A stretch of DNA of 24,000 nt from Leptotrichia sp. oral taxon 212. Lineage in GTDB: Bacteria > Fusobacteriota > Fusobacteriia > Fusobacteriales > Leptotrichiaceae. Shown here piece by piece: positions 2,751 through 24,000 of the stretch; the stretch's first letter is position 1, and the number at the start of each line of letters is the position of its first letter. The notes under the pieces were generated by a model that had not been told where the DNA came from, searched no databases, and was given only the letters and a program-made list of their open reading frames with translations. The stretch lies in assembly GCF_001274535.1 (NCBI RefSeq), contig NZ_CP012410.1:755126-779125 (forward strand), written 5' to 3'. A program made the translations under genes and the position numbers.

Positions 2751-3980
2751 TTATTTATCATTAAAATATTTAATTCTTTTTGGAGTACTTTCCATTTTTT
2801 CAATAACATTACCTGGAAGATATATTTCAATGATGGATTTTTTATCAGAATAATATCTGACAAAAATTTTTATATATTCATTTGAAAAATCAAAAGAATC
2901 GTTATCCTTAAAATAACTGATGGAATCAATATCTTTCAATTTAAAAGTGCGAAGGAGTTCTTCAATTTTTGGATAATATCTTTTTATTTCATTGAGTTTT
3001 CGTGTAAGGGTGTAAAATAAAACTATCGGAGATTTAACGGTTTTAAATTCACTTACATAAAGTTTCAAATTATCTGATGCGAGATTGAGCATTAATGTTC
3101 TTTTCAAATTTTTTTCAAAATTTTCAGAAAAAGAACTCTTAGCATGATTTATATTGTCATATACATATTTATATCCCCTCTTTGCTACATACAGTACAAA
3201 TAAACGATAAATTTCTTCAGGATTAGAAATTTTTTCTTTAATAAGCTCAAGCATTTTATAGATTGTATTGTCATATGGACTGTAAGGCTGTCTTGATTTA
3301 GTTATAAAAAAATTGATAGAAACAATTTTATTGGTAGGTTTTCCGCTTTCCTTTATTTTTTCATATTTAACGGAAAAATCTGTAAAAGTATTTATATCCA
3401 TTATAGCCTTTTTTAAAATATGTTTCTCAAAGTCAAAAAATCTTTCATACTTATTATCTGCATTAAGGTGCATTTTTACAGATGAAAGAGGAAGACAGAC
3501 TTCATTTTTATCTTCGGCATTCTTGATAATATTGTTATAAAAACCAAATGAAAAGGAATCCGTCATAAAAATAAATTTTTCAATTTCAAGAAGAGAAAAG
3601 AAACTTTTTTTGAGAGAAAAACAGTTCTTGAATTCTTCTGTAAAAAATATCTGACAATAATCAGAGTGCAAAATAAAAGATGAAAGAATTCCAAAAAAAC
3701 CGGAAAAATTAATGTCCGGAGAAAAAACAGAAAAAGATATATACTTTTCTGATAGAGCTTTAAAAAATGAATTAAAATTATTAATAGAAGAAAATTCAGG
3801 TATGGAAAGAATTTCTTCAAATCTGATTTCAGCTTTTTCCAGAAAATAGGAATCTGAAACAATTTTGAAAAATAATAATTTAAGAAATATCTTTTCATTT
3901 TTTGTTATTTTTTTAGAAAATTCAAGTTTAATATCCTTTTTCTGAAAATTTGTAAATTTTTGTGAAAAATATATGTTCAT
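2751..3980 (-). CDS. Rep_3-like (RepA/pi-type, tandem winged-helix) replication-initiator homolog with an extra ~180-aa C-terminal region
   Basis: 409-aa ORF with AGGAG 7 nt before the ATG. The segment CLPLSSVKMHLNADNKYERFFDFEKHILKKAIMDINTFTDFSVKYEKIK...KIVSINFFI follows the pattern I remember from pSC101 RepA (ISLDEFKFMLMLENNYHEFKRLNQWVLKPISKDLNTYSNMKLVV...LIFQV). The N-terminal part also fits the first WH domain loosely. The gene is visibly more AT-rich than its neighbours. Confidence 0.6.
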   Translation of the reverse strand: MNIYFSQKFTNFQKKDIKLEFSKKITKNEKIFLKLLFFKIVSDSYFLEKAEIRFEEILSIPEFSSINNFNSFFKALSEKYISFSVFSPDINFSGFFGILSSFILHSDYCQIFFTEEFKNCFSLKKSFFSLLEIEKFIFMTDSFSFGFYNNIIKNAEDKNEVCLPLSSVKMHLNADNKYERFFDFEKHILKKAIMDINTFTDFSVKYEKIKESGKPTNKIVSINFFITKSRQPYSPYDNTIYKMLELIKEKISNPEEIYRLFVLYVAKRGYKYVYDNINHAKSSFSENFEKNLKRTLMLNLASDNLKLYVSEFKTVKSPIVLFYTLTRKLNEIKRYYPKIEELLRTFKLKDIDSISYFKDNDSFDFSNEYIKIFVRYYSDKKSIIEIYLPGNVIEKMESTPKRIKYFNDK

Positions 3981-3996
3981 TTTGAAACTCCTAACT

Positions 3997-4093
3997 AACG
4001 AAAAAAAAATTATTTATTTCGTTTAGATTTTATATATAATTTTAATATTTATAAATTATATAAATATAAACGAAAAATATAAAAAAAATTCGT
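3997..4093. promoter_or_regulatory. Two similar inverted-repeat sites (AACGAAA-N13-TTTCGTT and ACGAA-N14-TTCGT) in the rep-like gene upstream/5'UTR region
   Basis: Site 1 spans 3997-4023 with 7-bp arms. Site 2 spans 4070-4093 with 5-bp arms. Their centres are about 71 bp apart. They hold four of the five CpG dinucleotides in the otherwise nearly pure A/T tract 3981-4187. Confidence 0.4.
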
Positions 4094-4187
4094 CTTTTTA
4101 ATAATTATACATAAAATCGATAATAAAATCAATAAAATAAAAGCAATTATTATAAAAATATTATATAAATAATTAAGAAACAATTTT

Positions 4188-4216
4188 TTGACAAAATGAC
4201 AAATGTGAGGTATAAC
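4188..4216 (+). promoter_or_regulatory. Sigma-70-type promoter of the PTS/peptidase locus
   Basis: TTGACA (4188-4193), a 17-bp spacer, then TATAAC (4211-4216), about 55 nt upstream of the ATG at 4270. Confidence 0.55.
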
Positions 4217-4269
4217 GATAATGAAAACAATAAAGATAAAATTTTAATTTTAATGTGGAGGAAGAGAAA

Positions 4270-5166
4270 ATGGGAAAAAGATTGCTTAGCTGCTTTACCA
4301 GTGATTTTAATAAAATGTCTGGTCAGGATTTAAAGAATGCAATAAAGGCAAGTGAAGGCAGAACAGTGTTGTCAGAAAATGTTGCAGGAAGAAGAAGCGT
4401 TACAGGTGATGTCACAAATAGTGAACTGGCAAGAGCTTTTGGAGCAGACCTTATACTGCTGAATGGAATTGATGTGTATAATCCGGTTATAGATGCTCTT
4501 CCTGAGTCAGATGAGCCTATAAAGCTTGTAAAAAAACTTACAGGAAGACCTATAGGACTTAATCTGGAACCTGTAGATCTGAAAGCTGACATGATGGAAG
4601 AAATAGAGATTATCCCTGAAGGAAGAATATGTTCAGAAGCTACACTGAAAAAGATAGAAAAAATGGGATTTGACTTTGTATGCCTGACAGGTAATCCTGG
4701 AACAGGAGTTACAAACAGCCAGATTGCTGAAGGAATAAAACTGGCTAAAAAGCATTTTTCAGGAATGGTAATAGCAGGTAAAATGCACTCTGCAGGAGTT
4801 GACGAACCTGTTGCAAATTTAGATGTTGTAAAAGAATTTATTGAAAGTGGTGCAGATGTTATAATGCTTCCGGCTGTAGGAACAGTACCTGGATTTACTC
4901 AGAGTGAAATGGAAAAAGCTGTAAAATATATCAAAGAAAATGGAGCACTTTCAATGTCTGCAATAGGAACAAGTCAGGAAAGCTCCACAAGAGAAACAAT
5001 AAGACAAATAGCGATAATGAATAAAATTGCGGGAGTGGATATTCAGCATATTGGAGATGCAGGATATTCAGGAGTTGCAAACTTTGAAAATATAATGGAA
5101 CTTTCCATAGCAATAAGAGGAGTAAGACATACAGTCAGAATGATTGCAGCTTCAAATGACAGATAG
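4270..5166 (+). CDS. Conserved hypothetical protein of unknown function (alternating beta/alpha pattern suggests a TIM-barrel-like fold); first gene of the PTS locus
   Basis: The ORF track starts at GTG 4255, but GGAGG (4257-4261) sits 8 nt before ATG 4270 (MGKRLL...), so 4270 is preferred. The sequence is non-repetitive and soluble-looking (ADLILLNGIDVYNP, CLTGNPGTGVTN, GADVIMLPAVGTVPG). I do not recognise a named family. Confidence 0.7.
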   Translation: MGKRLLSCFTSDFNKMSGQDLKNAIKASEGRTVLSENVAGRRSVTGDVTNSELARAFGADLILLNGIDVYNPVIDALPESDEPIKLVKKLTGRPIGLNLEPVDLKADMMEEIEIIPEGRICSEATLKKIEKMGFDFVCLTGNPGTGVTNSQIAEGIKLAKKHFSGMVIAGKMHSAGVDEPVANLDVVKEFIESGADVIMLPAVGTVPGFTQSEMEKAVKYIKENGALSMSAIGTSQESSTRETIRQIAIMNKIAGVDIQHIGDAGYSGVANFENIMELSIAIRGVRHTVRMIAASNDR

Positions 5167-5204
5167 AAAAATAAAAAATAAATATATATATTTTAGGAGG
5201 TTTT

Positions 5205-5531
5205 ATGAAAAGAATATACTTGTTTTGCAGTGCAGGAATGTCTACAAGCTTAGTTGCCAAAAGGATGCAGGAAGTGGCAGATAAACATAGTCTTCCCGTT
5301 GAAGTGAAGGCTTTTCCTGACAATAAGATAGATGTTATTGTCGAGGAATTTCATCCTGATGTAATTCTTTTAGGACCACAGGTAAAGTTTAAGCTTGAAC
5401 AGACAGCTTCAAAATACGAACCACAGGGTATTCCAGTAGCAGTAATTGATCTTGAAGATTATGGAAAAGTTGATGGAGAACGTATTTTAAAGAGAGCAAT
5501 AAAAATATTGAAGGAAAAGGCAGGGAAATAA
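5205..5531 (+). CDS. PTS EIIB component, lactose/cellobiose (chitobiose) family
   Basis: 108 aa with RBS TAGGAGG. The N-terminal MKRIYLFCSAGMSTSLVAKRM carries the phospho-Cys motif typical of Lac-family IIB proteins. Confidence 0.9.
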   Translation: MKRIYLFCSAGMSTSLVAKRMQEVADKHSLPVEVKAFPDNKIDVIVEEFHPDVILLGPQVKFKLEQTASKYEPQGIPVAVIDLEDYGKVDGERILKRAIKILKEKAGK

Positions 5532-5532
5532 T

Positions 5533-6882
5533 ATGTTTGATAAGTTGGAAAAAGTGTTAGGGCCTTTGGCATCTAAATTGAGTAGTAATAAAGTTTTAGC
5601 AGCAATCCGTGATGGATTTCTTGTGGGAACACCGTTAATTATAGCAGCTTCAATATTTTTAGTTATTGGTAATTTCCCTATTGAAGGATATGAAAAATTT
5701 GTTGCACAGTTTTTAGGTGAAGGATGGGACGGATATCTTAATGCTGTTATCCGTTCAACATTTGGAGTAATAGCACTTCTTGGTGTTATCGGTATTGGAT
5801 ATTATTATGCGAAGGCAAAGGGAGTAGAAGGAATTTCAGGAGCAGCTGTATCATTAGTAGCATTCCTTATTATAAGCCCTCAGTCTCATGATTTGTTTGT
5901 AAATGCAGAAGGAAAAGCTTTTAGAGGTTTTGCACTTAGAAATTTAGGAACAGAAGGTTTATTCCTTGCAATGATTACAGCATTACTTGCTGTAACTGTA
6001 TTTGCTGCAGTTAAAAATAAAGGATGGACAATAAAACTTCCTGAAGGAGTTCCGCCTGCAGTAATGAATTCATTTGCGGCATTAATACCAAGTATGTTTG
6101 TAATGCTTCTGTTCTTTGTGTTAAGACTTTTCTTCTATTTCTTTACAAAAGATCAGTATGCACATGACTTTATTTATAAAGTTCTGCAAGGTCCTCTTGA
6201 AGGTTTAGGAAAGAATCTCTTCTTTGAACCGATTTATCAGTTCCTATCAACATTATTCTGGTTCTTTGGTATTAATGGTCCTGCTGTTACAAATACAGTT
6301 TTCTCTCCATTACACCTGGCTATGACAACAGGAAATCAGGAAGCATTTGCGGCTCATATGCCATTACCTCATATATTTACAGGTTCATTCTCTGATTTCT
6401 TCTGTAACTTCGGTGGAGGAGGAAGTACACTATCTCTAGTGTTGCTGATGATTTTTAAAGGTAAGTCAGAACGTATGAAAAAATTAGGAAAATTATCTAT
6501 AGTGCCTGGAATTTTTGGAATAAACGAAATGGTTATTTTTGGACTTCCAGTTGTATTGAACCCAATTATTGCGATTCCATTTTTGTTAACACCGCTTGTT
6601 AATACAATTTTAGGTACACTTGCAACAGTATTACATATTATTCCTCGTACTACAGGAACATTATTACCTTGGACAACGCCTTTATTCTTTTCAGGATGGC
6701 TTTCTACAGGAAGTATAGTTGCAGGACTTTTCCAGATAGTACAGGTAGCAATAGGATGTATGATTTACTATCCATTCTTTAAAATATTGGATACTCAGTA
6801 TTTGCAAGATGAAACAAAACCTGTAGAACAAAATGAAAAAGATGATTTAGAAGACATTTCGCTTGATGATATCTCTTTCTAG
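5533..6882 (+). CDS. PTS EIIC permease, lactose/cellobiose family
   Basis: 449 aa, starting 1 nt after the IIB stop. It is polytopic and hydrophobic, with the Lac/Cel IIC-like N-terminus (LASKLSSNKVLAAIRDGF) and GINGP/INE motifs, and ends in an acidic tail. Confidence 0.9.
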   Translation: MFDKLEKVLGPLASKLSSNKVLAAIRDGFLVGTPLIIAASIFLVIGNFPIEGYEKFVAQFLGEGWDGYLNAVIRSTFGVIALLGVIGIGYYYAKAKGVEGISGAAVSLVAFLIISPQSHDLFVNAEGKAFRGFALRNLGTEGLFLAMITALLAVTVFAAVKNKGWTIKLPEGVPPAVMNSFAALIPSMFVMLLFFVLRLFFYFFTKDQYAHDFIYKVLQGPLEGLGKNLFFEPIYQFLSTLFWFFGINGPAVTNTVFSPLHLAMTTGNQEAFAAHMPLPHIFTGSFSDFFCNFGGGGSTLSLVLLMIFKGKSERMKKLGKLSIVPGIFGINEMVIFGLPVVLNPIIAIPFLLTPLVNTILGTLATVLHIIPRTTGTLLPWTTPLFFSGWLSTGSIVAGLFQIVQVAIGCMIYYPFFKILDTQYLQDETKPVEQNEKDDLEDISLDDISF

Positions 6883-6907
6883 AAAATATAATTTGTATTG
6901 AATAAGG

Positions 6908-6952
6908 CTGTTTCAAAATTAATTTATAAATTTTAATTTTGGGGCAGTTTTG
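6908..6952 (+). terminator. Rho-independent terminator after the IIC gene (plus-strand specific)
   Basis: CTGTTTCAAAATTAA (6908-6922) pairs with TTAATTTTGGGGCAG (6933-6947) to form a 15-bp stem. Three positions are U-G wobbles that pair only in the plus-strand RNA. The stem is followed by TTTTGTT. Confidence 0.55.
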
Positions 6953-7081
6953 TTCGTTATAGAGGTTACTTCAATATGAGAACTTCATTTAAGAGGAAAA
7001 TACACAAGTAATCATAAGAATAAAAGGACAGCTAATAGCAGAACATCTAAGTAAAATTTTTAGTAGTAAAGGAGACAGACA

Positions 7082-7603
7082 ATGAGAATAGTTTTATTTT
7101 TTGATCAGATTCAATCTGGAACAGGCGGGAAAGAAGGAGCTAATGTGGAACTTGCACTGGAAAAGGGTGGAATTGGTTCATACATGATGTTTTCAGAATA
7201 TATAAAAAATATAGGTGGAACAGTGCTTGCAACAACATACTGCAGCGACAACTATTTTAATGAAAATCAGGAACTTGTCCTTGAAAAAATGACGGGTCTT
7301 CTGAATAAGGTAAAAGCTGATATTCTTTTGTGTGGACCATGTTTCAACTATTACAACTATGCAGAAATGTCTTCCATTTTAGCAGAACACATAAAGAAGG
7401 AAACAGACTGTAAACCTGTAGTTGTATGTTCGGAAGAAAATAAAGAAATAATAGATAAATATAAAAATGATCTGGTAATGATAAAAATGCCCAAAAAAGG
7501 TGGAGTAGGATTACGTGAATCATTGCAGAATATGGCAAAAGTAATTAAAAAAGTTTATGATGGAGCAGATTTATCTGAAGTAAGTGATTATATATATAAA
7601 TAG
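7082..7603 (+). CDS. Stand-alone homolog of the N-terminal domain of glycine/sarcosine/betaine reductase component B (GrdB-like); function unknown
   Basis: 173 aa with RBS AAAGGAG. MRIVLFFDQIQSGTGGKEGANVELALEKGGIG...ATTYCSDNYFNENQE...ADILLCGPCFNYYNY...MPKKGGVGLRESLQNMAKV follows the remembered GrdB N-terminal pattern (YLNQFFGQIGGEEKA...GP..., CGDNYF.EN, AGPAFNAGRYG). There is no in-frame TGA and no selenocysteine region. Confidence 0.6.
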   Translation: MRIVLFFDQIQSGTGGKEGANVELALEKGGIGSYMMFSEYIKNIGGTVLATTYCSDNYFNENQELVLEKMTGLLNKVKADILLCGPCFNYYNYAEMSSILAEHIKKETDCKPVVVCSEENKEIIDKYKNDLVMIKMPKKGGVGLRESLQNMAKVIKKVYDGADLSEVSDYIYK

Positions 7604-7610
7604 TCAGAAA

Positions 7611-7836
7611 GAAACTATCTCAAAAAAGAAATAAAACATATGAAAAATATATTTATTCATTTACTAAAATTTCACTAATATAAAACAGTCATTCATAAAG
7701 AAAAAGTCAAAAACTCACCTAAAGGTTCAAACAGATGACTTTTTCTAAATTCATTTCCTGTTTTATATTGTGAAATTATAAATAATTCATAAATATAATT
7801 TTTCATATTACTCTTTAAATTTTTTTGAGACAATTC
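7611..7836. repeat. 226-bp imperfect palindrome, MITE-like, inserted between the GrdB-like and M42-like genes
   Basis: The left arm (7611-7688) and right arm (7758-7836) are reverse complements at roughly three quarters of positions by hand alignment. Examples are GAAACTATCTCAAAAAA vs GAATTGTCTCAAAAAAA at the tips, ATATGAAAAAT, ATATTTAT, and AATTTCAC..AATATAAAACAG at the inner ends. An inner hairpin is formed by AGAAAAAGTCA (7699-7709) and TGACTTTTTCT (7736-7746). Confidence 0.6.
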
Positions 7837-7838
7837 TA

Positions 7839-7867
7839 CTGAAAATTTCTATTTTTAAAAATACAAT
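7839..7867 (+). promoter_or_regulatory. Possible promoter for the peptidase genes, abutting the palindromic element
   Basis: CTGAAA (7839-7844), a 17-bp spacer, then TACAAT (7862-7867), 28 nt upstream of ATG 7895. The match to consensus is weak. Confidence 0.3.
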
Positions 7868-7894
7868 CAAATAAATAAAAGAAATGGAGAAGGT

Positions 7895-8884
7895 ATGAGA
7901 TTAGAGGAATTATGCCAATTAAGGGGAGTTTCAGGAGATGAAAAGGAAGTACATGATTTTTTATATGATGAATATAAAAAAAGAAATCTTCCAATAATAA
8001 AAGACAGACTAGGGTCGGTTTTTGGCATTAAGAAAGGAAACGATTCATCATATAAAATAATGATAAGTTCAAACATGGATGAAAGTGGAGGAATGATTTC
8101 AGACATCAGGGAAGACGGACTGATGGAATTTTTAACAATAGGACTTTATGAAAAAAGTCTGTTTGAACAGAGAACAGTAAAAGTACTTAACAGAAGACAT
8201 GAAGAATATACAGGATTTATAGTAAAAAATGAAAATGAACTTTTACTTGATACAGGATATGGAAATAAAGAGGAAGTTTTAAAAGCGGGAATTCAGATTG
8301 GAGATATTTTTTTACTTGATGTTCCAACTTTATGCCTTCCGGAAGGAGAGATACTTTCTAAAAATCTTTCTAACAGGGCAGGGCTTGAAGTTGGTCTTAC
8401 AGTTCTGGATAAACTGGAAGAAGGTAGGGAAAATCTTCCATTTGATGTAGCAGTAGGCGGAATATCCCATTCAGTAACAGGTCAGCGTGGAGCAATAACG
8501 GCAACGACTGCTGTAAAACCTGATATAGCTATTGTCATTGATGCGACATATGTAAAAGAACCTAAAGAAAATGCCGTATATATTCGCAGTTTTGATAAGT
8601 CAATGCTTCCAAATCAAATGTTAAAACAGGAATTTTATGAAGCTGCACAGAAAAAAGGATATATTCCTGAAGGGCATGTTCAGCTGGAAGCAACAGACGG
8701 TTCTTTTATCCATAAGTCATTGGAGGGAACTCCGGCAGTTGTACTTGTACTGCCTTTAAAACATAAACAGGCTCTTTTAAATTCGTTAAAAGTAAAGCAC
8801 ATAAATAATCTTAGTGATGTAATCATAGAGTTTATTAAGGGGCTGACTGCTGAAAAAATAGAAAAATTCGGATTTAAAGGGTGA
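7895..8884 (+). CDS. M42 peptidase-fold paralog with degenerate metal-binding residues (probably non-catalytic)
   Basis: 329 aa with RBS GGAGAAGG. It is collinear with the downstream M42 protein, but motifs are altered: SSNMDESG vs THMDEVG (His to Asn), KNLSNR vs KAFDNR (Asp to Ser), GISHSVTGQRGA vs TVQEEVGLRGA (Glu-Glu to His-Ser). VIDAT retains the Asp. Confidence 0.75.
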   Translation: MRLEELCQLRGVSGDEKEVHDFLYDEYKKRNLPIIKDRLGSVFGIKKGNDSSYKIMISSNMDESGGMISDIREDGLMEFLTIGLYEKSLFEQRTVKVLNRRHEEYTGFIVKNENELLLDTGYGNKEEVLKAGIQIGDIFLLDVPTLCLPEGEILSKNLSNRAGLEVGLTVLDKLEEGRENLPFDVAVGGISHSVTGQRGAITATTAVKPDIAIVIDATYVKEPKENAVYIRSFDKSMLPNQMLKQEFYEAAQKKGYIPEGHVQLEATDGSFIHKSLEGTPAVVLVLPLKHKQALLNSLKVKHINNLSDVIIEFIKGLTAEKIEKFGFKG

Positions 8885-8889
8885 GAAAA

Positions 8890-9969
8890 ATGAATTTTGA
8901 TATAAAATGGGAAGTTTTGAAGGAGCTGACAGAAACTTATGCAATTTCAGGATTTGAAGAGGATATTGTCAATATATTGAAAAAGCATATAAATCTTCCA
9001 TTTTCTCAGGATGGTCTTGGATCCTGCCTTTTTACAAAAGAAGGCAACGGTATTTCTATAATGGTAGCCACTCATATGGACGAAGTAGGATTTGTCGTAA
9101 AGGAAATAGATGAGCAGGGGTACCTGTATTTTCAGAATGTAGGAAATATGTGGTCGCATGTTCTGCTTAATCAGAAAGTGGCAGTTATAAATGAAAAAAA
9201 GAATATATATTATGGTGTTATTGGTGGACCTGCAGTCCATTCAATAAAGGAAAAGGAAAGAGAAAAGGTATTGCCAATTGATAAACTATATATTGATATG
9301 GGAGTTAGCAGTAAAAAACGGATTGAAGAACTGGGAATAAAAGTAGGAGACATGATATGTCCGTATGGAGAAATGATAGAACTGAATGAGAAAGGATACC
9401 TCGCAGGAAAAGCCTTTGATAATCGTGTAAGTGTAGCGACAGGAATATGGCTTATGAATATGCTGAAAAAGGAAAATACAGGTAATAAGGTTACTCTCGC
9501 GGCAACAGTACAGGAGGAAGTTGGGCTAAGAGGTGCAAGAACAACAGCACATAAAGTATTTCCTGACCTGGCAATAGCTGTAGATACTACTTTGGCAGGG
9601 GATACCCCCTTGAATAAAAACAATATAAAGCTTGGCAAAGGAGTAGCCATTAATGTTATTGATTCAATGACCATAATGAACAGGGGACTGCTTATTTATA
9701 TTGAAAATCTGTGCAGAAAGAATGACATTCCTTATCAGCTGAGCTGTTTTACAGATGGTGGGACTGATGCAGGAAATATTCATAAGTCAGGAACTGGAAT
9801 ACTTGCAACAACTTTATCTATACCTATGAGATACATGCATACTCATCTTGGAGTCGTACATAAGGATGATATTATTGCGACATTGAAACTGCTGAAACTG
9901 ATAATAGAAGATCTGACTCCTGAAAAGTATGACAGAATACTGAGGGAAAACTATAATTACAGTGAATAA
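8890..9969 (+). CDS. M42 family glutamyl/leucyl-type aminopeptidase (TET/FrvX/YpdE-like), catalytic motifs intact
   Basis: ATG 8890 is preferred over GTG 8881 because the RBS AAGGGTGAG precedes it. Motifs present: ATHMDEVGF, GKAFDNR, QEEVGLRGA, AIAVDTT, GGTDAG, PMRYMHT. The alternative GTG 8881 would overlap the upstream gene's stop codon (8882-8884). Confidence 0.85.
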   Translation: MNFDIKWEVLKELTETYAISGFEEDIVNILKKHINLPFSQDGLGSCLFTKEGNGISIMVATHMDEVGFVVKEIDEQGYLYFQNVGNMWSHVLLNQKVAVINEKKNIYYGVIGGPAVHSIKEKEREKVLPIDKLYIDMGVSSKKRIEELGIKVGDMICPYGEMIELNEKGYLAGKAFDNRVSVATGIWLMNMLKKENTGNKVTLAATVQEEVGLRGARTTAHKVFPDLAIAVDTTLAGDTPLNKNNIKLGKGVAINVIDSMTIMNRGLLIYIENLCRKNDIPYQLSCFTDGGTDAGNIHKSGTGILATTLSIPMRYMHTHLGVVHKDDIIATLKLLKLIIEDLTPEKYDRILRENYNYSE

Positions 9970-9996
9970 GATGAAAAAACTTGAGGAGGTAAGAAG

Positions 9997-10962
9997 ATGT
10001 GGGGAATAATTGCAACATGGTGCATGGCACATGATGGTGTCAAAGAAGCTTCAGAAATATTGAAAAATGATGGAAAAGCAGGAGAAGCGATAGAAACTGC
10101 AATAAAAAACGTTGAAGATTTTCCTTTTTATAAATCTGTAGGTTACGGTGGACTTCCAAATGAAGAAATGGAAGTCGAACTGGATGCGGCATACATGGAT
10201 GGAAGCAGCTTTGATTTTGGTGCAGTATGTGCCATTAAAGATTTTGCCAATCCTATATCTGTTGCCAGAGATTTGAGTCATTTAAATGAAAATAGCATGT
10301 TAGTAAGTGAAGGTGCAGAAAAATATGCGCATAAAAAAGGTTTTGAAAGAAAAAATATGCTTACAGAAAGGGCAAAAATACATTACAGAAACAGATTGAA
10401 GGATATGGCACATATAAAAGAAATAGAAATAAAGCCCTATTCAGGACATGATACGGTTGGTATGGTGTGCCTTGATAAAGAAGAAAATATAGTTGCAGGA
10501 ACTTCTACAAGTGGACTTTTCATGAAAAAGAAAGGAAGAGTGGGAGATTCGCCTGTAATCGGTTCAGGACTCTATGCTGACAGTGAGATTGGAGGAGCAA
10601 GTGCAACAGGACTCGGAGAAGATATAATGAAAGGAATAATTTCATATGAGATAGTAAAACTTATGGAAAGTGGTCTTTCTCCTCAGAAAGCATGTGAAAA
10701 GGCTGTCTTCACTTTTGAAAAGAAATTGATAAGAAAAAGAGGAAAAGCAGGAGATATTTCTGTAATTGCCATGAATAACAAAGGAGAATGGGGAGTAGCT
10801 ACAAATATTGAAAATTTTTCCTTTGTTGCAGGAAATGAAAAGACTCCTGTAAAAGTATACAGGACAAAAAGAAAAGGCAATGAAATGAAACACGAAGAAG
10901 CGACTGAAGAATGGCTACAGGAGTATATCAATGAAAGAACTAAACCTCTTATAGAAAAGTAA
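9997..10962 (+). CDS. Ntn-hydrolase of the Asparaginase_2 family, glycosylasparaginase (N4-(beta-N-acetylglucosaminyl)-L-asparaginase)-like, cytoplasmic
   Basis: 321 aa with RBS GAGGAGG. The autoprocessing site SGHDTVGMVCLD matches the HDT(I/V)GM signature of glycosylasparaginases rather than the GTVGAV of isoaspartyl peptidases. The N-terminus WGIIATW resembles AGA (VVNTW). GDSPVIGSGLYAD and GASATGLGEDIM are present. There is no signal peptide. Confidence 0.75.
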   Translation: MWGIIATWCMAHDGVKEASEILKNDGKAGEAIETAIKNVEDFPFYKSVGYGGLPNEEMEVELDAAYMDGSSFDFGAVCAIKDFANPISVARDLSHLNENSMLVSEGAEKYAHKKGFERKNMLTERAKIHYRNRLKDMAHIKEIEIKPYSGHDTVGMVCLDKEENIVAGTSTSGLFMKKKGRVGDSPVIGSGLYADSEIGGASATGLGEDIMKGIISYEIVKLMESGLSPQKACEKAVFTFEKKLIRKRGKAGDISVIAMNNKGEWGVATNIENFSFVAGNEKTPVKVYRTKRKGNEMKHEEATEEWLQEYINERTKPLIEK

Positions 10963-10974
10963 GGCAGGTAGAAA

Positions 10975-12195
10975 ATGGATAAAAATATGGATGTTAACAA
11001 AAAATATGACAATAGTAAGAATATTTCCAATGAGGAAATGATACAGAAAATAAAAAAAGAAGTGAAAAAAATACAGCCAGAATTAATAGAGACAATACGG
11101 GAATTAGTTTCTATTTACAGCATTCAGATGGAACCTGAAGAAAATGCTCCATTTGGAAAAGGGCCTACCGAGGCACTTAATAAAGCTCTGGAAATATCAG
11201 AAAGACTGGGATTTAATACAGTAAATATAGATAATAAAATAGGTTATGCCGAATATATACCGGAAGAAATAAGGGGTTATGAAGAATATATAGGGATTTT
11301 TGGACATGTAGATGTTGTTCCTCTTGGCGAAGGGTGGAAGTATCCTCCATTAGGTGGAAAAATAGAAAATAACCGTATATATGGAAGAGGTGTTCTAGAT
11401 AATAAAGGTCCTATTCTGTCAAATCTTTTTGCACTCCATATTCTGAAAAAATTAGGAATAAAATTTGATGTTCCTGTAAGAATAGTTTTCGGAACAAATG
11501 AAGAAACAGGATTTGCATGTGTAAAACATTATCTGACAAAGGAAAAAGCCCCTATTTTTGGCTGGACTCCTGATTGTAAATGGCCAGTTGTATACGGAGA
11601 AAGGGGAAGGCTTAAAGTAAGAATATATTCTGAAATGAAAGATTTAGAGAAATTATATGAATTTGTAAATGGATATATTTTATCAGCACCTAATAATGGT
11701 GTAAAATTAAAAATAAACTTTAAGGATGATGATTTCGGAGAAATGATATTAAGAGGGTATAGATTTGGAATTGCTGAAAATAGATATTTTTTTGAATTTG
11801 TAATGAGCTATCCTGCAATATGTAAAAAAGAACAACTTATGAATCTAATCAGGAGTAATTTGACGGAAGGAACGGAGCTGGAGGAAATTTCCAACTGGAA
11901 TCCAGTTCTATATGATAAAAGTTCTGAATATGTGTATACCTTACAGAAAGTATATAATTATGTTACAGGATTTAATGCGGAACCTGTCACAACGACAGGA
12001 GGAACTTATGCAAAGATAATTCCTAATATTATTGCATATGGCCCAAGTTTTCCAGGTCAGAAGGATATAGCACATTTACCTGATGAGTGGCTTGATTTAT
12101 CAGATTTAGAGAAAATAACAGAGATTTATGCACTTTCATTATATGAAATAAGTAAGTTGAAAAATAAAAGACAAAGTAGAAAGTTGAAAAAGTAA
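10975..12195 (+). CDS. M20 family dipeptidase (PepV/Sapep-like)
   Basis: 406 aa. Motifs: FGHVDVVPLGEGWKYPP, GRGVLDNKGP, FGTNEETG, and C-terminal TTGGTYAK...AHLPDEW. The overall layout fits PepV-type dipeptidases. Confidence 0.85.
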   Translation: MDKNMDVNKKYDNSKNISNEEMIQKIKKEVKKIQPELIETIRELVSIYSIQMEPEENAPFGKGPTEALNKALEISERLGFNTVNIDNKIGYAEYIPEEIRGYEEYIGIFGHVDVVPLGEGWKYPPLGGKIENNRIYGRGVLDNKGPILSNLFALHILKKLGIKFDVPVRIVFGTNEETGFACVKHYLTKEKAPIFGWTPDCKWPVVYGERGRLKVRIYSEMKDLEKLYEFVNGYILSAPNNGVKLKINFKDDDFGEMILRGYRFGIAENRYFFEFVMSYPAICKKEQLMNLIRSNLTEGTELEEISNWNPVLYDKSSEYVYTLQKVYNYVTGFNAEPVTTTGGTYAKIIPNIIAYGPSFPGQKDIAHLPDEWLDLSDLEKITEIYALSLYEISKLKNKRQSRKLKK

Positions 12196-12327
12196 TAAAA
12201 ATAGAATTTACAGTAAAAATAAAAAAGAGGAGATAAAGAATACAAATTTAAAATAACAAAAACGATAGTAAAGTATTTTTTGTATATACTGTATTTTTTA
12301 ACATCCTCTTTCTTTATTAGATTCTGG

Positions 12328-12663
12328 TTATCTGAATTTTACAATTTCTCCTGAGTTGCTGTTCACATCATATTCAAACTTCTTTCCGTTTACGTAAAAT
12401 TCAATTTCATATACGGCAATGCCATTTTCTACCCCAAGCTGAATTTTAGTAATTTTAGCATCACGTTCTGCTACCCTTGCATGAGATAACGCAATTTTTT
12501 TAGCTTTTTCAGAAGAAATATTTGTTCCTGCAGAAAATTTAATTTTTTCAGCAGTATTATCCTGATTAAGAATAAAATCTTTGTAATTAATATTAGCAGA
12601 ATATACTGTTATTTCAAGCAAAAGAGAAATAATTAATATTGATTTAAAAAATATATTCTTCAA
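12328..12663 (-). CDS. Secreted PepSY-domain protein
   Basis: 111 aa with a TTG start, supported by GGAAAGGAG 7 nt upstream. It has an N-terminal signal-like segment (ILIISLLLEITVYS). The C-terminal ISSEKAKKIALSHA...ITKIQLGVENGIAVYEIEFYVNGKKFEYDVNSNSGEIV fits the PepSY pattern. Confidence 0.7.
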   Translation of the reverse strand: MKNIFFKSILIISLLLEITVYSANINYKDFILNQDNTAEKIKFSAGTNISSEKAKKIALSHARVAERDAKITKIQLGVENGIAVYEIEFYVNGKKFEYDVNSNSGEIVKFR

Positions 12664-12689
12664 TGTTATTCTCCTTTCCTATTTCAATT

Positions 12690-13040
12690 TTACTTATTGG
12701 AACTCCATTTTATAGCTCTTCCTGTATAAGCATCAATTTCAAAGTCGTAAGTTACCCCACCATGAACCAATTTTCCTTTAAATGAATCCCCTTCTCCACG
12801 AAACTCCTTAACATCTGATACATTTGAACCAGGAACTCTGGCTGTAACAATTTGCTTAACTCTGTCATGAGAAAGTTTAACTCTGCTGTTTTTTGAATCT
12901 TTAACTTCTGAATTTCCAACTTGATTTTCAATAACAAAATTTGGAATTTTCACTGCAGCATCAGGTTTACCTGAAGAAAATGCAATACTTCCCAGAATTA
13001 AAAGACCAGACAAAGCAAATTTTAAATAATTTTTTTTCAT
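12690..13040 (-). CDS. Secreted PepSY-domain protein
   Basis: 116 aa with RBS AAGGAGG and signal peptide MKKNYLKFALSGLLILGSIAFS. LSHDRVKQIVTARVPG...GKLVHGGVTYDFEIDAYTGRAI fits PepSY. Confidence 0.7.
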   Translation of the reverse strand: MKKNYLKFALSGLLILGSIAFSSGKPDAAVKIPNFVIENQVGNSEVKDSKNSRVKLSHDRVKQIVTARVPGSNVSDVKEFRGEGDSFKGKLVHGGVTYDFEIDAYTGRAIKWSSNK

Positions 13041-13063
13041 ATTGATAACCTCCTTATTTTTTC

Positions 13064-13072
13064 ATTATATCA
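13064..13072 (-). promoter_or_regulatory. Extended -10 promoter element (TGaTATAAT on the minus strand) upstream of the PepSY genes
   Basis: The reverse complement of 13064-13072 reads TGATATAAT, about 24 nt upstream of the ATG at 13040. The -35 is weak (TGGAAT). Confidence 0.35.
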
Positions 13073-13192
13073 TAATTATTTCTACAATTCCATAATAGCA
13101 AATTTTCATTAAAGAAAAATGAGAAGACAGATTTTTCAAAATAATTTTTAATGTATAATTTTGATTTTTTATAAAATTTATAATAAATCAAT

Positions 13193-14542
13193 CTAAAGGG
13201 GGATTTTTATTGTGAAAATAGTTCCTTTTTCAATTTTGCTAATAACTGAAATATCTCCATTATGAGCTTCTACAATCCATTTTACCATTGAAAGTCCAAG
13301 CCCGGCTCCTTCATTATTACGTGAAGGATCAACCTGATAAAATCTTGTCCATATTTTATCAATATGTTCATGACTGATTCCAATTCCATCGTCAGCAATT
13401 TTAATTACAATCATTTTTTCCTGTATATATAAGTCAAAATAAATATTTCCATTAATTTTTCCATATGTAACAGCATTTGAAAGAAGATTTATAAAAACTC
13501 TCATTATCATTGATTCATCAATATCTGCATAAATATTAGGCGTAATTTTGGAAATAATATTAATATTTTTAGTTCTTGCATTTTCTCTTCTGGAATCAAT
13601 AACAATTTCTGCAAGTTCACTGATATTGATATTGGCAAGATTTAATTTCTGATGTCCCTTGTCCATTCTTGCAAGTGTTAAAAGCTGTGAAACAAGATGT
13701 GACATTTTTTGAGTTTCATTAAAGATTATATTGAAGATATTTTTACTTTCTGAAACTGTAGAAACATTGTCCTTTCCGTATTCTGCCTGAGCCATTATAA
13801 CAGAAATAGGAGTACGTAGTTCATGAGAAACATCTGAATTGAACTGTACTTCCCTTTCAAAAGAATTTTGAAGCCTGTCAAACATTGTGTCAAATGTATT
13901 TGCCAATGTATAGATTTCATCATTTCCTTTACCAAGGTTTATTCTTTGTGACAGATCATCTCCTTCATTTATTTTTTCAGCGGCAGATCTTATTTTTTCA
14001 ATAGGGATAAATGCATTTTTAGTTATGATATATCCAATTATTCCGGCAAAAATAAGAAAAAATGGAAATCCAACAAGAGAAATTGTGATGACAGTTTCCA
14101 TGGCCTGACTTGCTCCAACAGCAGACATTACACCACGAACCCAAACTTCTCCATATCCCTCATAAGTTTTTTTACTTTCATATACATACCATTTTTCATA
14201 CTGATGTTTAACAGTCTTAATACTTTTTTTATCTGAAAATGTATCATCGTATTCAAAATTCAGTGGATTATTACCGTATACAAATCCCAAGTTTTTATTA
14301 TACACTGAAAGCTGTATAGTATCTATCTTTGTTTCCATGTCATTTTCAACGATAATTTCACCATCTATGATGGAGATTTCCCTGAAACTGCTTTCTACTG
14401 TACTTTTAAGACGTCCATATTCATATGAATGAATAATATTCTCACTCATATAGAAAATAATTAAAAGAAACAGAATTACAAGACCTGTCATTAGACCCAT
14501 GTACCATAATGTTATTTTCAGTTTTATAGAAATTTTATTCAT
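13193..14542 (-). CDS. Sensor histidine kinase (two TM segments, HAMP, HisKA, HATPase_c)
   Basis: 449 aa with H-box SHELRTPISVI, N-box LLSNAVTYG, G-boxes DDGIGI and GAGLGLS. The start overlaps the response-regulator stop by 8 nt. Confidence 0.9.
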   Translation of the reverse strand: MNKISIKLKITLWYMGLMTGLVILFLLIIFYMSENIIHSYEYGRLKSTVESSFREISIIDGEIIVENDMETKIDTIQLSVYNKNLGFVYGNNPLNFEYDDTFSDKKSIKTVKHQYEKWYVYESKKTYEGYGEVWVRGVMSAVGASQAMETVITISLVGFPFFLIFAGIIGYIITKNAFIPIEKIRSAAEKINEGDDLSQRINLGKGNDEIYTLANTFDTMFDRLQNSFEREVQFNSDVSHELRTPISVIMAQAEYGKDNVSTVSESKNIFNIIFNETQKMSHLVSQLLTLARMDKGHQKLNLANINISELAEIVIDSRRENARTKNINIISKITPNIYADIDESMIMRVFINLLSNAVTYGKINGNIYFDLYIQEKMIVIKIADDGIGISHEHIDKIWTRFYQVDPSRNNEGAGLGLSMVKWIVEAHNGDISVISKIEKGTIFTIKIPL

Positions 14543-15212
14543 TTTCCACCTTCAGAATATATCCAATCCCTCTTATAGTGTGAATCAGTTTTGGTGAAAA
14601 ATTATTATCAATTTTTTTTCTTAAATATCGTATATATACATCAACAACATTTGTACCACCTTCATAGTTATAATCCCATATGTGCTGCTCAATTTTTTCT
14701 CTTGAAAGGACTTTTTCCTTGTTTCTGATCATATATTCCAGAATAGTAAATTCTCTTGTTGAGAGTTTTATGGAAATTTTATCTCTGGACACTTCGTGGG
14801 AATCACAGTTAACAGTAAGGTTTGCAATAGTAAAAACATTGCTTGCATTATTTGTATTTCTTCTGAGAAGTACACGGATTCTTGCTAAAAGCTCATCAAA
14901 GGCAAAAGGCTTTATAAGATAGTCATCAGCTCCAAAATCAAGTCCCTGAACCCTGTCCTCTATTCCGTCACGTGCAGTGAGAAGAAGAACAGGAGTTTTG
15001 ATATTCTGCTTTCTTATCTTTTTAAGAACCTCAAATCCATCTAATTTAGGCAGCATAATATCCAGTATTATGACATCATATTCAATAGAAAAAATATAAT
15101 CAAGTGCTTCCTTCCCATCAAAGCATGAATCAACGCCATAGTGTTCCAATTTTAATTTTTTTACAATAATGTCATTTAAATTAACTTCATCTTCAACTAC
15201 AAGTATTCTCAT
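14535..15212 (-). CDS. OmpR-family response regulator
   Basis: Start placed at MRILVVEDE (ATG at 15212, RBS AAGGGG upstream) rather than the ORF-track 15296. Receiver motifs VIILDIMLPKLDG and LLLTA are present. The C-terminal winged helix reads LSTREFTILEYM...IHTIRGIGYIL. Confidence 0.9.
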   Translation of the reverse strand: MRILVVEDEVNLNDIIVKKLKLEHYGVDSCFDGKEALDYIFSIEYDVIILDIMLPKLDGFEVLKKIRKQNIKTPVLLLTARDGIEDRVQGLDFGADDYLIKPFAFDELLARIRVLLRRNTNNASNVFTIANLTVNCDSHEVSRDKISIKLSTREFTILEYMIRNKEKVLSREKIEQHIWDYNYEGGTNVVDVYIRYLRKKIDNNFSPKLIHTIRGIGYILKVENE

Positions 15213-15579
15213 ATGAAAATAGTCCCCTTTCTTCTTAAGTTGCAAAGTTAACAGATGTTTTTTCTTTATTATACAGTAAGTATTGGATAAAAGCAAGGAA
15301 ATAAGATAGCCAGGAAATTAACAATATATATTAATATCTATCATACATTAGTTATTAATAATATAAATAAAAAAATATAATTATTATTTAGAAAACTAGA
15401 TAATTATTATGTTTTATTTAATTATAAATATTTAAAATTCGCATCCTGGCATATAAAAAATATTTAAATAAGGGATAGATACAAAATAAACTTGTATAAA
15501 TCAAACTTTATATGATAAAATAACAACACTGGTAAAAGTTTTTTAGTAAAAGTGAAATTATAGAAATTTTAGAAAAATG

Positions 15580-16675: not shown

Positions 16676-17569
16676 ATGCAAATAAATAGATTATTTGAGA
16701 TGCTTCATATGATGCTAAACAAGAAAAATATTACAGCTAAAGAACTGTCAGAATATTTTGAAGTATCTGTAAGAACAGTATACAGGGATGTAGAAACTTT
16801 GGCTTCTGCAGGTATCCCTGTATATTCTTCAAGAGGTAAAAATGGTGGAATTAGATTACTGGAAGGCTATACTTTGAATAAATCACTGATTTCTCAGGAT
16901 GAGCAGAATGAAATAATGTATGCACTGCAAAGTCTAAAGGCTGCAAATTATCCAGAATCGGAGGGAACTTTTAAAAAATTGAGTTTGATTTTTAATAAAT
17001 CGTCAGATAACTGGATAGAAATTGATTTTTCCAGATATGGAAGTGATGATAATGTTTTATTTGAAAATATAAAGCAGGCGATACTGAAAAAATTGATAAT
17101 AAAGTTTACATATTTTAATTCAAGAGGGGAAAAATCCTATAGAACAGCTGATCCACTGAAAATATGGTTTAAAGAGAAGGCATGGTACTTATTTGCTTAC
17201 TGTCATAATAAAAAAGATATTAGGCAGTTCAAAATAAATAGAATAAAAGAGCTTATTCTTACAGAAGAACATTTTGAAAAATCGCTGGAAAATTTTAAGA
17301 TGAATAATAAAAAATCTAAACTAAAAGATGTAAGAGTTGTAGTTGAAATAGATAAATCACAGGCATATCGTGTTTATGATGAATGTTCGGAAGAAAATAT
17401 AAGTAAAATGGAAAATGGAAATTTTGAAATTATAATGGAATATCCTGAAAATGATTGGGTTTATGGATATCTTCTATCTTTTGGAGAATATTTGAAAGTG
17501 AAAGAACCTAAGAGAATAAAAAAAATTTTATTTGAGAAAATTGAGAAAATGAAGGAGAATTATAAATAG
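16676..17569 (+). CDS. YafY-family transcriptional regulator (HTH_11 + WYL domain)
   Basis: 297 aa. MQINRLFEMLHMMLNKKNITAKELSEYFEVSVRTVYRDVETLASAGIPVYSSRGKNGGIRLLEGY is the classic YafY N-terminus. The WYL region reads KAWYLFAYCHNKKDIRQFKINRI. Confidence 0.85.
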   Translation: MQINRLFEMLHMMLNKKNITAKELSEYFEVSVRTVYRDVETLASAGIPVYSSRGKNGGIRLLEGYTLNKSLISQDEQNEIMYALQSLKAANYPESEGTFKKLSLIFNKSSDNWIEIDFSRYGSDDNVLFENIKQAILKKLIIKFTYFNSRGEKSYRTADPLKIWFKEKAWYLFAYCHNKKDIRQFKINRIKELILTEEHFEKSLENFKMNNKKSKLKDVRVVVEIDKSQAYRVYDECSEENISKMENGNFEIIMEYPENDWVYGYLLSFGEYLKVKEPKRIKKILFEKIEKMKENYK

Positions 17570-18464: not shown

Positions 18465-18866
18465 ATGTTAAATAGTTTTTATCCTGTAATTTTAAGTAAT
18501 AACATAGAGGTAACAGGAAATTTTATAAAAAAATATTTTAATTTTAAAGAAACATTTGTCAGCGATTGGTATATCAGTTTGAAATATGAGAATAACTTTG
18601 AGATAGCAATTATAGATAAAAATCATGAAACAATTCCAGAAGGGTTCAGGCAACAATCCAAAGGAATTATATTAAATTTTGAAGTTGAAGATGTTGATAA
18701 AATATATGAAAGGATTTCAGAAGATAAAGATATGAATATATTGCTAGAAATACAAAATGAGGAATGGGGACAGAGGCATTTTATTTTTGAAGGTCCTGAT
18801 AATCTTCTGATAGATGTTATACAGATTATAGAACCAACTGAAGAATTTTTGAAACAATATAAATAA
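18465..18866 (+). CDS. VOC superfamily protein (glyoxalase / bleomycin-resistance fold)
   Basis: 133 aa with RBS GAGGAGG. The pattern PVILSNNIEVTGNFIKKYFNF...ILNFEVEDVDKIYERI...EEWGQRHFIFEGPDNLLIDVIQ is typical of small VOC proteins. Confidence 0.7.
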   Translation: MLNSFYPVILSNNIEVTGNFIKKYFNFKETFVSDWYISLKYENNFEIAIIDKNHETIPEGFRQQSKGIILNFEVEDVDKIYERISEDKDMNILLEIQNEEWGQRHFIFEGPDNLLIDVIQIIEPTEEFLKQYK

Positions 18867-18887: not shown

Positions 18888-19382
18888 ATGAAATATGAAA
18901 TAGTAGAAATTAAAGAAAAAACTCTTGTTGGATTAAAAGCGAGAATAAAGGAAGAGAAAACAGCATATGATACAATCTGGAATTTATGGAAAGATTTGTA
19001 TTCTGAAAAAGGTGTCAAAAATGTAAAAGATAGAAAAAACGGTAATCTTATGGGAGTTTATTATAACTACAGTAATGAAAATGGACTTGCGTATGACTGT
19101 CTTACAGGTTGTGAAGTAAAGGATACAAGAGATAAAATCCCTGAAAATATGATAAAAATACAAATCCCTGATGGAAAATATGCAAAATTTGTAATTACTG
19201 GAAATCCTGAAAAGGCAGTTGGAGAGTTTTGGGATAAATTTTGGAAAGAATTGAGTGAAGATTTTTCGGATAATAGAAAGTATACATATGATTTTGAAGA
19301 ATATATAACTAAAGATAATTATGAAATATCAGGTGAAAGCTATGAAAACATGGAAATTCACATTTATATCAGTATAAAATAA
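18888..19382 (+). CDS. GyrI-like (SbmC/Cass2/AraC-effector-binding type) small-molecule-binding protein, copy 1
   Basis: 164 aa with RBS AAGGTGG. MKYEIVEIKEKTLVGLKARI... and the C-terminal EIHIYISIK fit the GyrI-like beta-alpha-beta-beta duplication pattern. Confidence 0.7.
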   Translation: MKYEIVEIKEKTLVGLKARIKEEKTAYDTIWNLWKDLYSEKGVKNVKDRKNGNLMGVYYNYSNENGLAYDCLTGCEVKDTRDKIPENMIKIQIPDGKYAKFVITGNPEKAVGEFWDKFWKELSEDFSDNRKYTYDFEEYITKDNYEISGESYENMEIHIYISIK

Positions 19383-19401
19383 TAATTAGGAGATGATAAT
19401 T

Positions 19402-23182: not shown

Positions 23183-23188
23183 AATTTT

Positions 23189-23878: not shown

Positions 23879-24000
23879 TTTTTTATCCTTTACAGTTTTG
23901 TTTATAATTTTATCACAAATTGAATAAAAAAAGAACATTTACAAAAAATACTTTTCAAATTTAACAAAAAGAAAAAAGTCATAATTTTGTCAAAAATAAC

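Follow-up and report, generated by a model that had tools for sequence, protein, structure and literature searches.

We report a locus of eight plus-strand genes in Leptotrichia sp. oral taxon 212 (contig NZ_CP012410.1, positions 755,126 to 779,125, a stretch of 24,000 nt called the window below; the locus is 4270-12195) that, judging by sequence comparison, is most likely the Leptotrichia version of an ega-type pathway for using N-acetylglucosaminyl-asparagine (GlcNAc-Asn). This glyco-amino acid is the stub left after N-glycoproteins have been cut by an endo-beta-N-acetylglucosaminidase and proteases. The ega (enterococcal glycosylasparaginase) locus of Enterococcus faecalis, OG1RF_10933-10939, has been characterised experimentally (Combret et al. 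2023, Res Microbiol 175:104169), and later papers by the same group name its transporter the GlcNAc-L-Asn phosphotransferase system (PTS). As described, OG1RF_10933 is a GntR regulator, 10934 a dipeptidase, 10935 EgaG, and 10936 and 10937 the EIIB and EIIC of a lactose/cellobiose (Lac/Cel) type PTS, respectively. The last member, 10938-39, is a pseudogene whose intact form in other strains codes for a putative oxidoreductase related to GrdB. Two promoters are assigned to the locus, and the later papers give its EIIA as CelA1, the single cellobiose-type EIIA of E. faecalis, which is encoded elsewhere. On that description, ega and the window share five core families: a glycosylasparaginase (GA), a Lac/Cel EIIB, a Lac/Cel EIIC, an M20 dipeptidase and the GrdB-like "oxidoreductase".

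A first-pass annotation of this DNA had proposed that a Lac/Cel PTS imports a glyco-amino acid of the GlcNAc-Asn type and that a cytoplasmic GA cleaves it, a core inference that is supported by co-conservation of the genes and by the match to ega. Its guess that a IIA would act in trans agrees with the reported role of CelA1, and its statement that no PTS had been characterised for such substrates is out of date, because the ega GlcNAc-L-Asn PTS has been described. The functional idea is therefore supported at its core but already published; what is new is the variant architecture, the new phylum and three conserved accessory genes. Since the published work establishes the PTS route for GlcNAc-Asn in E. 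faecalis, we annotate the locus as ega-like and not as a new pathway. Three conserved unknowns are marked out by it: the DUF7916 protein, the GrdB-like protein and a metal-less M42 paralog.

Core genes and their conservation

All eight open reading frames (ORFs) were confirmed on the plus strand at the positions in Table 1, and profile searches bore out every family that the first-pass annotation had given them. That annotation had also described the locus as lacking a IIA, a regulator, NagA/NagB and a glycosidase, and searches of the window agree. No IIA, GntR, PRD-type regulator or CutC gene was found in the 24 kb (GntR was also sought by tblastn with two GntR proteins of the LSA1692 subfamily as queries), and no NagA, NagB or related glycosidase is among the Pfam assignments of the other window ORFs scanned.

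On alignment, the N-terminal nucleophile (Ntn) hydrolase encoded in the locus resembles glycosylasparaginases of solved structure much more closely than it does isoaspartyl peptidases. Its top match in the PDB is the Flavobacterium glycosylasparaginase 1p4k (E 4.4e-58, 200 bits), versus about 118 bits (E 6e-33) for the isoaspartyl peptidase/asparaginases of E. coli and human and about 69 bits for taspase. The motif GHDTVGM is present, with H151-D152-T153 aligned to H150-D151-T152 of the Flavobacterium enzyme so that T153 corresponds to the nucleophile Thr152, and the beta-chains in the PDB begin at query residue 153. The Asp-binding residues T171, R181, D184 and T204-G205 correspond to T170, R180, D183 and T203-G204 of the Flavobacterium enzyme, W8 aligns with its sugar-stacking Trp11, and its Phe13 is replaced by Met10. 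Residue 4 already pairs with residue 7 of the mature Flavobacterium enzyme, which leaves no room for a signal peptide, and the GA is predicted to be cytoplasmic; the autoprocessing signature and the lack of a signal peptide, both remarked at the first pass, are thus borne out by the alignment. The protein is 54-56% identical to proteins of Enterococcus gilvus, Enterococcus raffinosus and Latilactobacillus curvatus that carry the NCBI name N(4)-(beta-N-acetylglucosaminyl)-L-asparaginase.

To follow conservation of the gene set, one genome per species was scanned with an alignment of 21 relatives of the DUF7916 protein. The scan gave at least 504 genome loci with such a relative, of which the best 80 were examined with 10-kb flanks. 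A GA gene is present in 13 of the 80, from three orders and two phyla: Leptotrichia, Granulicatella (7), Abiotrophia, a Carnobacterium metagenome-assembled genome (MAG), a MAG labelled Streptococcus, and Anaerococcus (2). Every one of the 13 also carries a GrdB-like gene, an M20 gene and a IIC 56-67% identical to that of the window, and a IIB is present wherever the contig does not stop within the locus. Firmicutes cassettes usually run PRD-type activator, IIA, IIB, IIC, GrdB-like, (M42a, M42b), GA, M20, (CutC), DUF7916, the bracketed genes being found in part of the cassettes. The Leptotrichia layout has the DUF7916 gene moved ahead of all the others and lacks IIA, regulator and CutC; the closest cassettes carry the PRD-type activator in place of GntR, and the window is without either. 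The CutC-family TIM-barrel gene (PF03932) lies between M20 and DUF7916 in the ega-like cassettes of Granulicatella, Abiotrophia and Carnobacterium (for example 9255-10004 in locus L028 and 9220-9999 in locus L051) and is missing in Leptotrichia and Anaerococcus. The same locus as in the window, with protein identities of 87-99%, is found on a contig of a Leptotrichia MAG (L001).

The window IIB is 72-74% identical to the IIB of the Granulicatella and Abiotrophia cassettes and 52% identical to the ega-type IIB of E. gilvus, and the window IIC is 44-46% identical to the IICs of E. gilvus and L. curvatus. A plasmid collection served as a sample independent of DUF7916. In it, GA homologs above 54% identity were found only in E. 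raffinosus, E. gilvus and L. curvatus, on megaplasmids of the two enterococci and on one L. curvatus replicon, and the three clusters inspected there read GntR-M20-GA-IIB-IIC(-IIA) or GA-GntR-GrdB-like-IIC-M20. One Enterococcus chromosome has GntR-M20-GA-IIB-IIC. A neighbour-joining tree unites all GA-linked IICs, among them those of the window, E. gilvus and L. curvatus, in one clade, separate from the other IICs adjacent to DUF7916 genes. The first-pass annotation had made its proposal depend on whether the PTS and the asparaginase/peptidase genes are conserved together; they are, across phyla, since the 13 GA loci, the plasmid-collection sample and the IIC clade agree.

These results bear on two other explanations of the locus. 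One is that the PTS is an ordinary beta-glucoside/chitobiose transporter, with the GA and the peptidases forming a separate amino-acid/peptide salvage module that merely adjoins it. The IIC does score best against cellobiose-type models (TIGR00359, 387.8 bits, under the cutoff of 434) and a strong hairpin stands between IIC and the downstream genes, but PTS and GA/M20 genes occur together in every GA locus examined, although the gene order varies and the loci span two phyla, the GA-linked IICs form a single clade, and E. faecalis, by the published description, employs the ega PTS for GlcNAc-Asn; we therefore consider this explanation very unlikely. The other would make the Ntn hydrolase an isoaspartyl aminopeptidase or L-asparaginase which, with the M42 and M20 proteins, degrades damaged (isoAsp) peptides. 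Its sole NCBIfam match is the beta-aspartyl-peptidase PRK10226, and the catalytic Thr, Arg and Asp are common to both enzyme classes. That match, however, reaches 120.5 bits, far under the cutoff of 567, and the difference in score between solved glycosylasparaginases and isoaspartyl peptidases (200 and 118 bits, respectively), the retained sugar-stacking Trp, and the homologs of 54-56% identity that bear the name glycosylasparaginase and sit in ega-type loci leave it scarcely credible.

Peptidase-fold and accessory proteins

The first-pass annotation had counted three peptidase-fold genes in the locus. All three do have the fold, but the count was overstated as regards activity, M42a having lost its ligands, and the M42 pair is present in 7 of the 13 GA cassettes and absent from the other 6. 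M42b keeps all metal ligands and the catalytic Glu (H65, D180, E212/E213, D235, H320). At the ligand positions M42a reads N,D,S,S,V,D,Q versus H,D,D,E,E,D,H in M42b, a loss of four of the five metal ligands and of the catalytic Glu (His to Asn, Asp to Ser, Glu-Glu to Ser-Val, His to Gln) that is identical in all seven loci with the pair. By these substitutions M42a is predicted to be a metal-less pseudo-peptidase that keeps the fold and cannot be an active metallopeptidase. The paralogs are encoded end to end, or with a 4-nt overlap if M42b starts at GTG 8881, an arrangement which suggests that M42a and M42b form a hetero-oligomer.

An M20 gene accompanies the GA gene in every GA locus of the sample. 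The catalytic-domain motifs of the window M20 protein align with those of Sapep (3khz) and its catalytic ligands are kept, with about 13 residues in place of Sapep residues 210-321. Its lid lacks a segment of about 67 aa that is present in the Enterococcus and Latilactobacillus homologs and is about 100 residues short of that of Staphylococcus aureus Sapep; such a short-lid M20 is typical of the DUF7916-carrying branch of cassettes.

The AlphaFold2 model of the DUF7916 protein has a mean confidence (pLDDT) of 96.6 and eight beta/alpha units, as expected of a confidently predicted TIM barrel. Its top fold matches in the PDB reach template-modelling (TM) scores of only about 0.5 (the pyruvate carboxylase CT domain, PrpB, pyruvate kinase, IMPDH and NanE), a sequence search against solved structures gave no match, and weak similarity to NanE is seen in 15 of 59 family members. 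A literature search on DUF7916 returned no papers. Of 79 sampled loci, 58 have the gene inside a PTS cassette: a Lac/Cel PTS gene stands within three genes of it in 44, a Man-type PTS gene in 3, which are Catenibacterium, and 11 are ega-like cassettes. Its commonest operon is ROK, IIC, DUF7916, IIB, IIA, with no phospho-glycosidase (for example L004 8524-11700, L053 and L066), and was seen in Clostridium, Streptococcus, Enterococcus, Bacillus and one Pasteurellaceae genome; genes of the glycoside hydrolase (GH) 16-like or GH35 families are sometimes near these minimal operons. The 298-aa protein listed as unknown at the first pass is not specific to the pathway, most relatives belonging to PTS operons without a GA gene. 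Because a DUF7916 gene is absent from the Enterococcus and Latilactobacillus GA loci examined and is not among the E. faecalis ega genes as described, it is probably dispensable for the core pathway. DUF7916 may be an unrecognised catabolic enzyme for PTS products, and it is the most promising of the three conserved unknowns because it is PTS-linked in most sampled loci, is often the sole candidate catabolic enzyme there, and has relatives in at least 504 genome loci.

The GrdB-like protein covers positions 2-164 of the 347-position GRDB model, that is, its N-terminal half. Its gene occurs in all 13 GA cassettes and in no other locus of the 80-locus sample, and also in L. curvatus. In enterococci it is variable, being absent from several Enterococcus ega-type loci and, as described, a pseudogene in OG1RF, where the counterpart in ega is called a putative oxidoreductase. 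Residues invariant in the homolog alignment are Q9, G13, G15-G16-K17, G85-P86 and an MPKK motif. A profile search found no related solved structure, and a single-sequence model (pLDDT 68.7) gave weak fold matches of the P-loop-NTPase-like kind only (E >= 4e-3, TM < 0.5). A redox role, with CGPC as a thioredoxin-type site, was considered and dropped, as CGPC is not conserved among the homologs. Selenocysteine read-through was likewise rejected: the protein belongs to a recognised selenium-free family, and in L001 the M42a ribosome-binding site directly follows the GrdB-like stop.

Transcription signals and genomic surroundings

Table 1. Features of the Leptotrichia locus and its flanks (window coordinates)
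Feature	Position	Strand	Basis or remark
Promoter-like TTGACA-17-TATAAC	4188-4193 / 4211-4216	+	read directly in sequence
DUF7916 protein	4270-5166	+	298 aa from ATG (303 aa from GTG 4255); PF25509, E 9.5e-132
PTS IIB (EIIB), Lac/Cel type	5205-5531	+	PF02302, E 3.1e-15; active-site Cys9 within LFCSAGMSTS
PTS IIC (EIIC), Lac/Cel family	5533-6882	+	PF02378, E 8.2e-57; TIGR00410 387.8 bits, cutoff 236
Hairpin plus U-run, terminator/attenuator candidate	6892-6963	+	between IIC and GrdB-like gene
GrdB-like protein without selenocysteine	7082-7603	+	173 aa; NF041545 GrdB_like_no_Se 229.6 bits, cutoff 175
Strain-specific AT-rich insertion of about 275 bp	7603-7877	.	AAATA flanks; absent from L001
M42a, M42-fold paralog without metal ligands (predicted pseudo-peptidase)	7895-8884	+	PF05343, 127 bits
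M42b, intact M42 (TET-type) aminopeptidase	8881-9969	+	PF05343, 314.7 bits; PDB 1vhe, E 6e-73
Glycosylasparaginase (GA), Ntn hydrolase, EgaG/AsnA2-like	9997-10962	+	Asparaginase_2, E 3.7e-68
M20 Sapep/PepV-type dipeptidase, EgaP-like, shortened lid	10975-12195	+	TIGR01887 322 bits, cutoff 208
AT-rich inverted-repeat region between convergent M20 and PepSY genes	12202-12326	.	likely transcription-unit end

The eight genes had been described at the first pass as a run behind one TTGACA-17-TATAAC promoter. Both hexamers and the 17-nt spacer were found, and the gene order stands; a single simple operon is doubtful in view of the hairpin and the insertion described below. The probable start of transcription is at 4188-4216. 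In this AT-rich region promoter-like sites are no more frequent than chance predicts (42, versus 41.3 +/- 7.2 in shuffles), and the 4188-4216 site fails the rule of the consensus scan that position 6 of the -10 hexamer be T and is not listed by it; all that speaks for it is the comparison with L001, which has the same two hexamers around a spacer that differs at four bases. The hairpin between IIC and the GrdB-like gene was found by reading and folding, having been missed by the consensus terminator scan. It folds at -29.2 kcal/mol (z = -9.15), a stability that none of 200 shuffles matched, and is kept in L001 with one pair-preserving G-to-A change while the downstream spacer diverges, and transcription is probably modulated there.

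The insertion of about 275 bp separates the GrdB-like stop from the M42a ribosome-binding site, which are adjacent in L001, and turns the stop from TAA to TAG. It holds a weak hairpin (7699-7746). No match to it was found in Rfam or the plasmid collection, no repeat of it elsewhere in the window, and no clear terminal inverted repeats on inspection; an Rfam scan of 3900-12700 gave nothing real. At the far end of the locus, the fold of 12190-12330 (-25.4 kcal/mol, z = -2.9) is weak evidence for a structured transcription end.

Directly upstream of the locus are a very AT-rich stretch (3981-4187) and, on the minus strand at 2751-3980, a Rep_3-type replication initiator gene (PF21205); in L001 a 409-aa minus-strand ORF lies just upstream of DUF7916. 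The window IIB, IIC and GA are 65-74% identical to those of Granulicatella. This identity, together with the adjoining Rep_3 initiator gene, suggests horizontal transfer of the cassette on an element resembling a plasmid, and it was probably acquired from oral Lactobacillales. Further upstream, 17-697 holds the C-terminal part of a GH4 glycosidase gene and 848-2596 a GH13 gene of the alpha-glucosidase type; the two look like a module of their own for using alpha-glucosides.

Downstream, the minus-strand regions 12328-15296 and 21635-23938 each hold a histidine kinase gene followed by a response-regulator or response-regulator-like ORF, of which the first, 14535-15296, was scanned; the two regulator ORFs share a 99-nt stretch of 72% identity, and two small PepSY-domain genes (12328-13040) precede the first kinase/regulator pair. 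Tandem ORFs at 18888-19382 and 19393-19875 have 84% DNA identity over 300 nt, and the first scores as Cass2/GyrI-like. They are followed by a third GyrI-like gene (19895-20527) and preceded by a WYL/HTH regulator gene (16676-17569) and a glyoxalase-like gene (18465-18866).

Proposed pathway and comparison with known systems

In the pathway that we propose, EIIC would import GlcNAc-beta-Asn while EI, HPr and a Lac/Cel EIIA encoded elsewhere would feed phosphoryl transfer through Cys9 of EIIB, yielding GlcNAc-6-P-Asn; we infer this phosphorylation from PTS chemistry and from the reported service of CelA1 as EIIA of ega. The GA, self-activated by a predicted cleavage between D152 and T153, would hydrolyse the beta-aspartyl-glucosylamine bond to give L-aspartate and 1-amino-GlcNAc(-6-P), which would decay to GlcNAc-6-P and ammonium, and housekeeping NagA and NagB from outside the window would take the sugar into glycolysis. 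The GA substrate must have free alpha-amino and alpha-carboxyl groups (PMC6960285), so trimming of glyco-peptides would be a natural role for M20 and M42b: we speculate that these two, M42b probably complexed with the inactive M42a, act on short imported glyco-peptides to set these two groups free. Two further conserved proteins, DUF7916 and the GrdB-like protein, are counted as accessory. The pathway's presence in an oral Fusobacteriota genus points to scavenging of N-glycoprotein cores by the oral community.

Several observations weigh against this reconstruction. The EIIA, regulator, NagA and NagB on which it would draw are all absent from the window. Orthology with EgaG, EgaB and EgaC is deduced through other Enterococcus loci of equal gene order: the link to ega consists of gene content, gene order and 38-56% identity to E. 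gilvus proteins, and the 120 matches listed for the E. gilvus GA are from other Enterococcus and Vagococcus species, none from E. faecalis. Co-transcription of all eight genes is doubtful, and a single transcript is not assured because of the 6892-6963 hairpin and the 7603-7877 insertion. As to peptide trimming, M42a, by its predicted loss of metal ligands, would contribute no metallopeptidase activity and the M20 lid is truncated; moreover, mutation of pepV in L. casei did not impair growth on the glyco-amino acid 6'FN-Asn (PMC6960285), for which reason the trimming role is kept speculative.

A variant of the pathway would give the locus a wider substrate range than that of E. faecalis, taking in short N-glycopeptides or larger core fragments such as chitobiosyl-Asn, with GlcNAc-Asn as one substrate among several, M42a/M42b and M20 trimming the peptide and DUF7916 acting as an extra enzyme on the phosphorylated sugar. 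The cassette sub-lineage with the short-lid M20 has gained two conserved extras, DUF7916 and the M42 pair; DUF7916 is modelled with confidence as a TIM barrel, weakly similar to NanE and other phosphosugar barrels, and is the sole candidate catabolic enzyme in its commonest operon; and some Lac/Cel EIICs accept oligomers of up to four or more residues according to the literature. Set against this, DUF7916 has no known activity and no paper mentions it, it is absent from the Enterococcus and Latilactobacillus loci and from ega as described, the M42 pair is missing from 6 of 13 cassettes, and no PTS is known to transport peptides. We regard so wide a range as unlikely. A related and more general idea, that the DUF7916 branch does more than the E. 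faecalis prototype, with DUF7916 TIM barrels acting on phosphorylated Lac/Cel products and M42a/M42b/M20 trimming N-glycopeptides imported by the PTS, is rather improbable as a whole but would have consequences: if true, it would explain the ROK-IIC-DUF7916-IIB-IIA operons that have no phospho-glycosidase and would offer a first class of substrates to account for the association of M42 genes with PTS operons (frvX, sgcX, ypdE). The ega-type GlcNAc-Asn pathway remains our preferred reading.

Among known systems, cryptic E. coli PTS operons also have an embedded M42 gene (frvX, sgcX, ypdE), and sgc has in addition a TIM-barrel gene, sgcQ. They belong to other PTS families (Fru and Gat types) and are not known to have a GA, M20 or GrdB-like gene or an established substrate, and a literature search returned nothing on the function of frvX, sgcX or ypdE.

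The Flavobacterium/Elizabethkingia GA and human aspartylglucosaminidase have the fold, the H-D-T site and the Arg/Asp/Thr-Gly residues in common with the window GA. They are secreted, periplasmic or lysosomal enzymes for unphosphorylated substrate, whereas the window GA is without a signal peptide, has Met at the Phe13 position and carries a C-terminal extension of about 40 aa.

The alf-2 cluster of Lacticaseibacillus casei BL23, for fucosyl-alpha-1,6-GlcNAc-Asn, encodes a permease, AlfC, AsdA, PepV, AsnA2 and SugK (PMC6960285), so the first-pass account of a glycosylasparaginase, a PepV-like peptidase and a permease was accurate. Like the window it links a cytoplasmic glycosylasparaginase (AsnA2) to a PepV-type peptidase of family M20 and serves to salvage a glyco-amino acid from the N-glycan core (PMC6960285), the type of substrate proposed here. 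Unlike the window it uses a permease of the major facilitator superfamily, AlfH, in place of a PTS, yields unphosphorylated GlcNAc, and needs the GH29 fucosidase AlfC, the ROK kinase SugK and AsdA. The window has no counterpart of AlfH, AlfC, SugK or AsdA, the eight locus genes and the other window ORFs scanned being assigned to other families.

Closer is the asnA2 locus of Latilactobacillus sakei and L. curvatus. In L. sakei (LSA1693-LSA1689), asnA2, GntR, IIC and M20 genes are clustered, and the locus of the two species shares with the window a GA, a GrdB-like protein, a Lac/Cel IIC and a Sapep-type M20, at identities in L. curvatus of 54% (GA), 46% (IIC), 32% (GrdB-like) and 35-46% (M20). 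It differs in having a GntR regulator (after which the LSA1692 subfamily is named), in having no IIB annotated in the cluster, and in having neither DUF7916 nor M42 genes.

The nearest known counterpart is ega itself. With E. gilvus as proxy for E. faecalis, identities to the window are 56% for GA, 52% for IIB, 44% for IIC and 38% for M20. In ega, as described, the EIIA is supplied in trans and the substrate is GlcNAc-L-Asn; the absence of a IIA from the 24 kb of the window would fit such an arrangement. Compared with the described ega genes, the window has no GntR regulator and another gene order, adds DUF7916 and an active/inactive M42 pair, and has a shortened M20 lid; and its host is a member of the Fusobacteriota, whereas that of ega is a member of the Lactobacillales.

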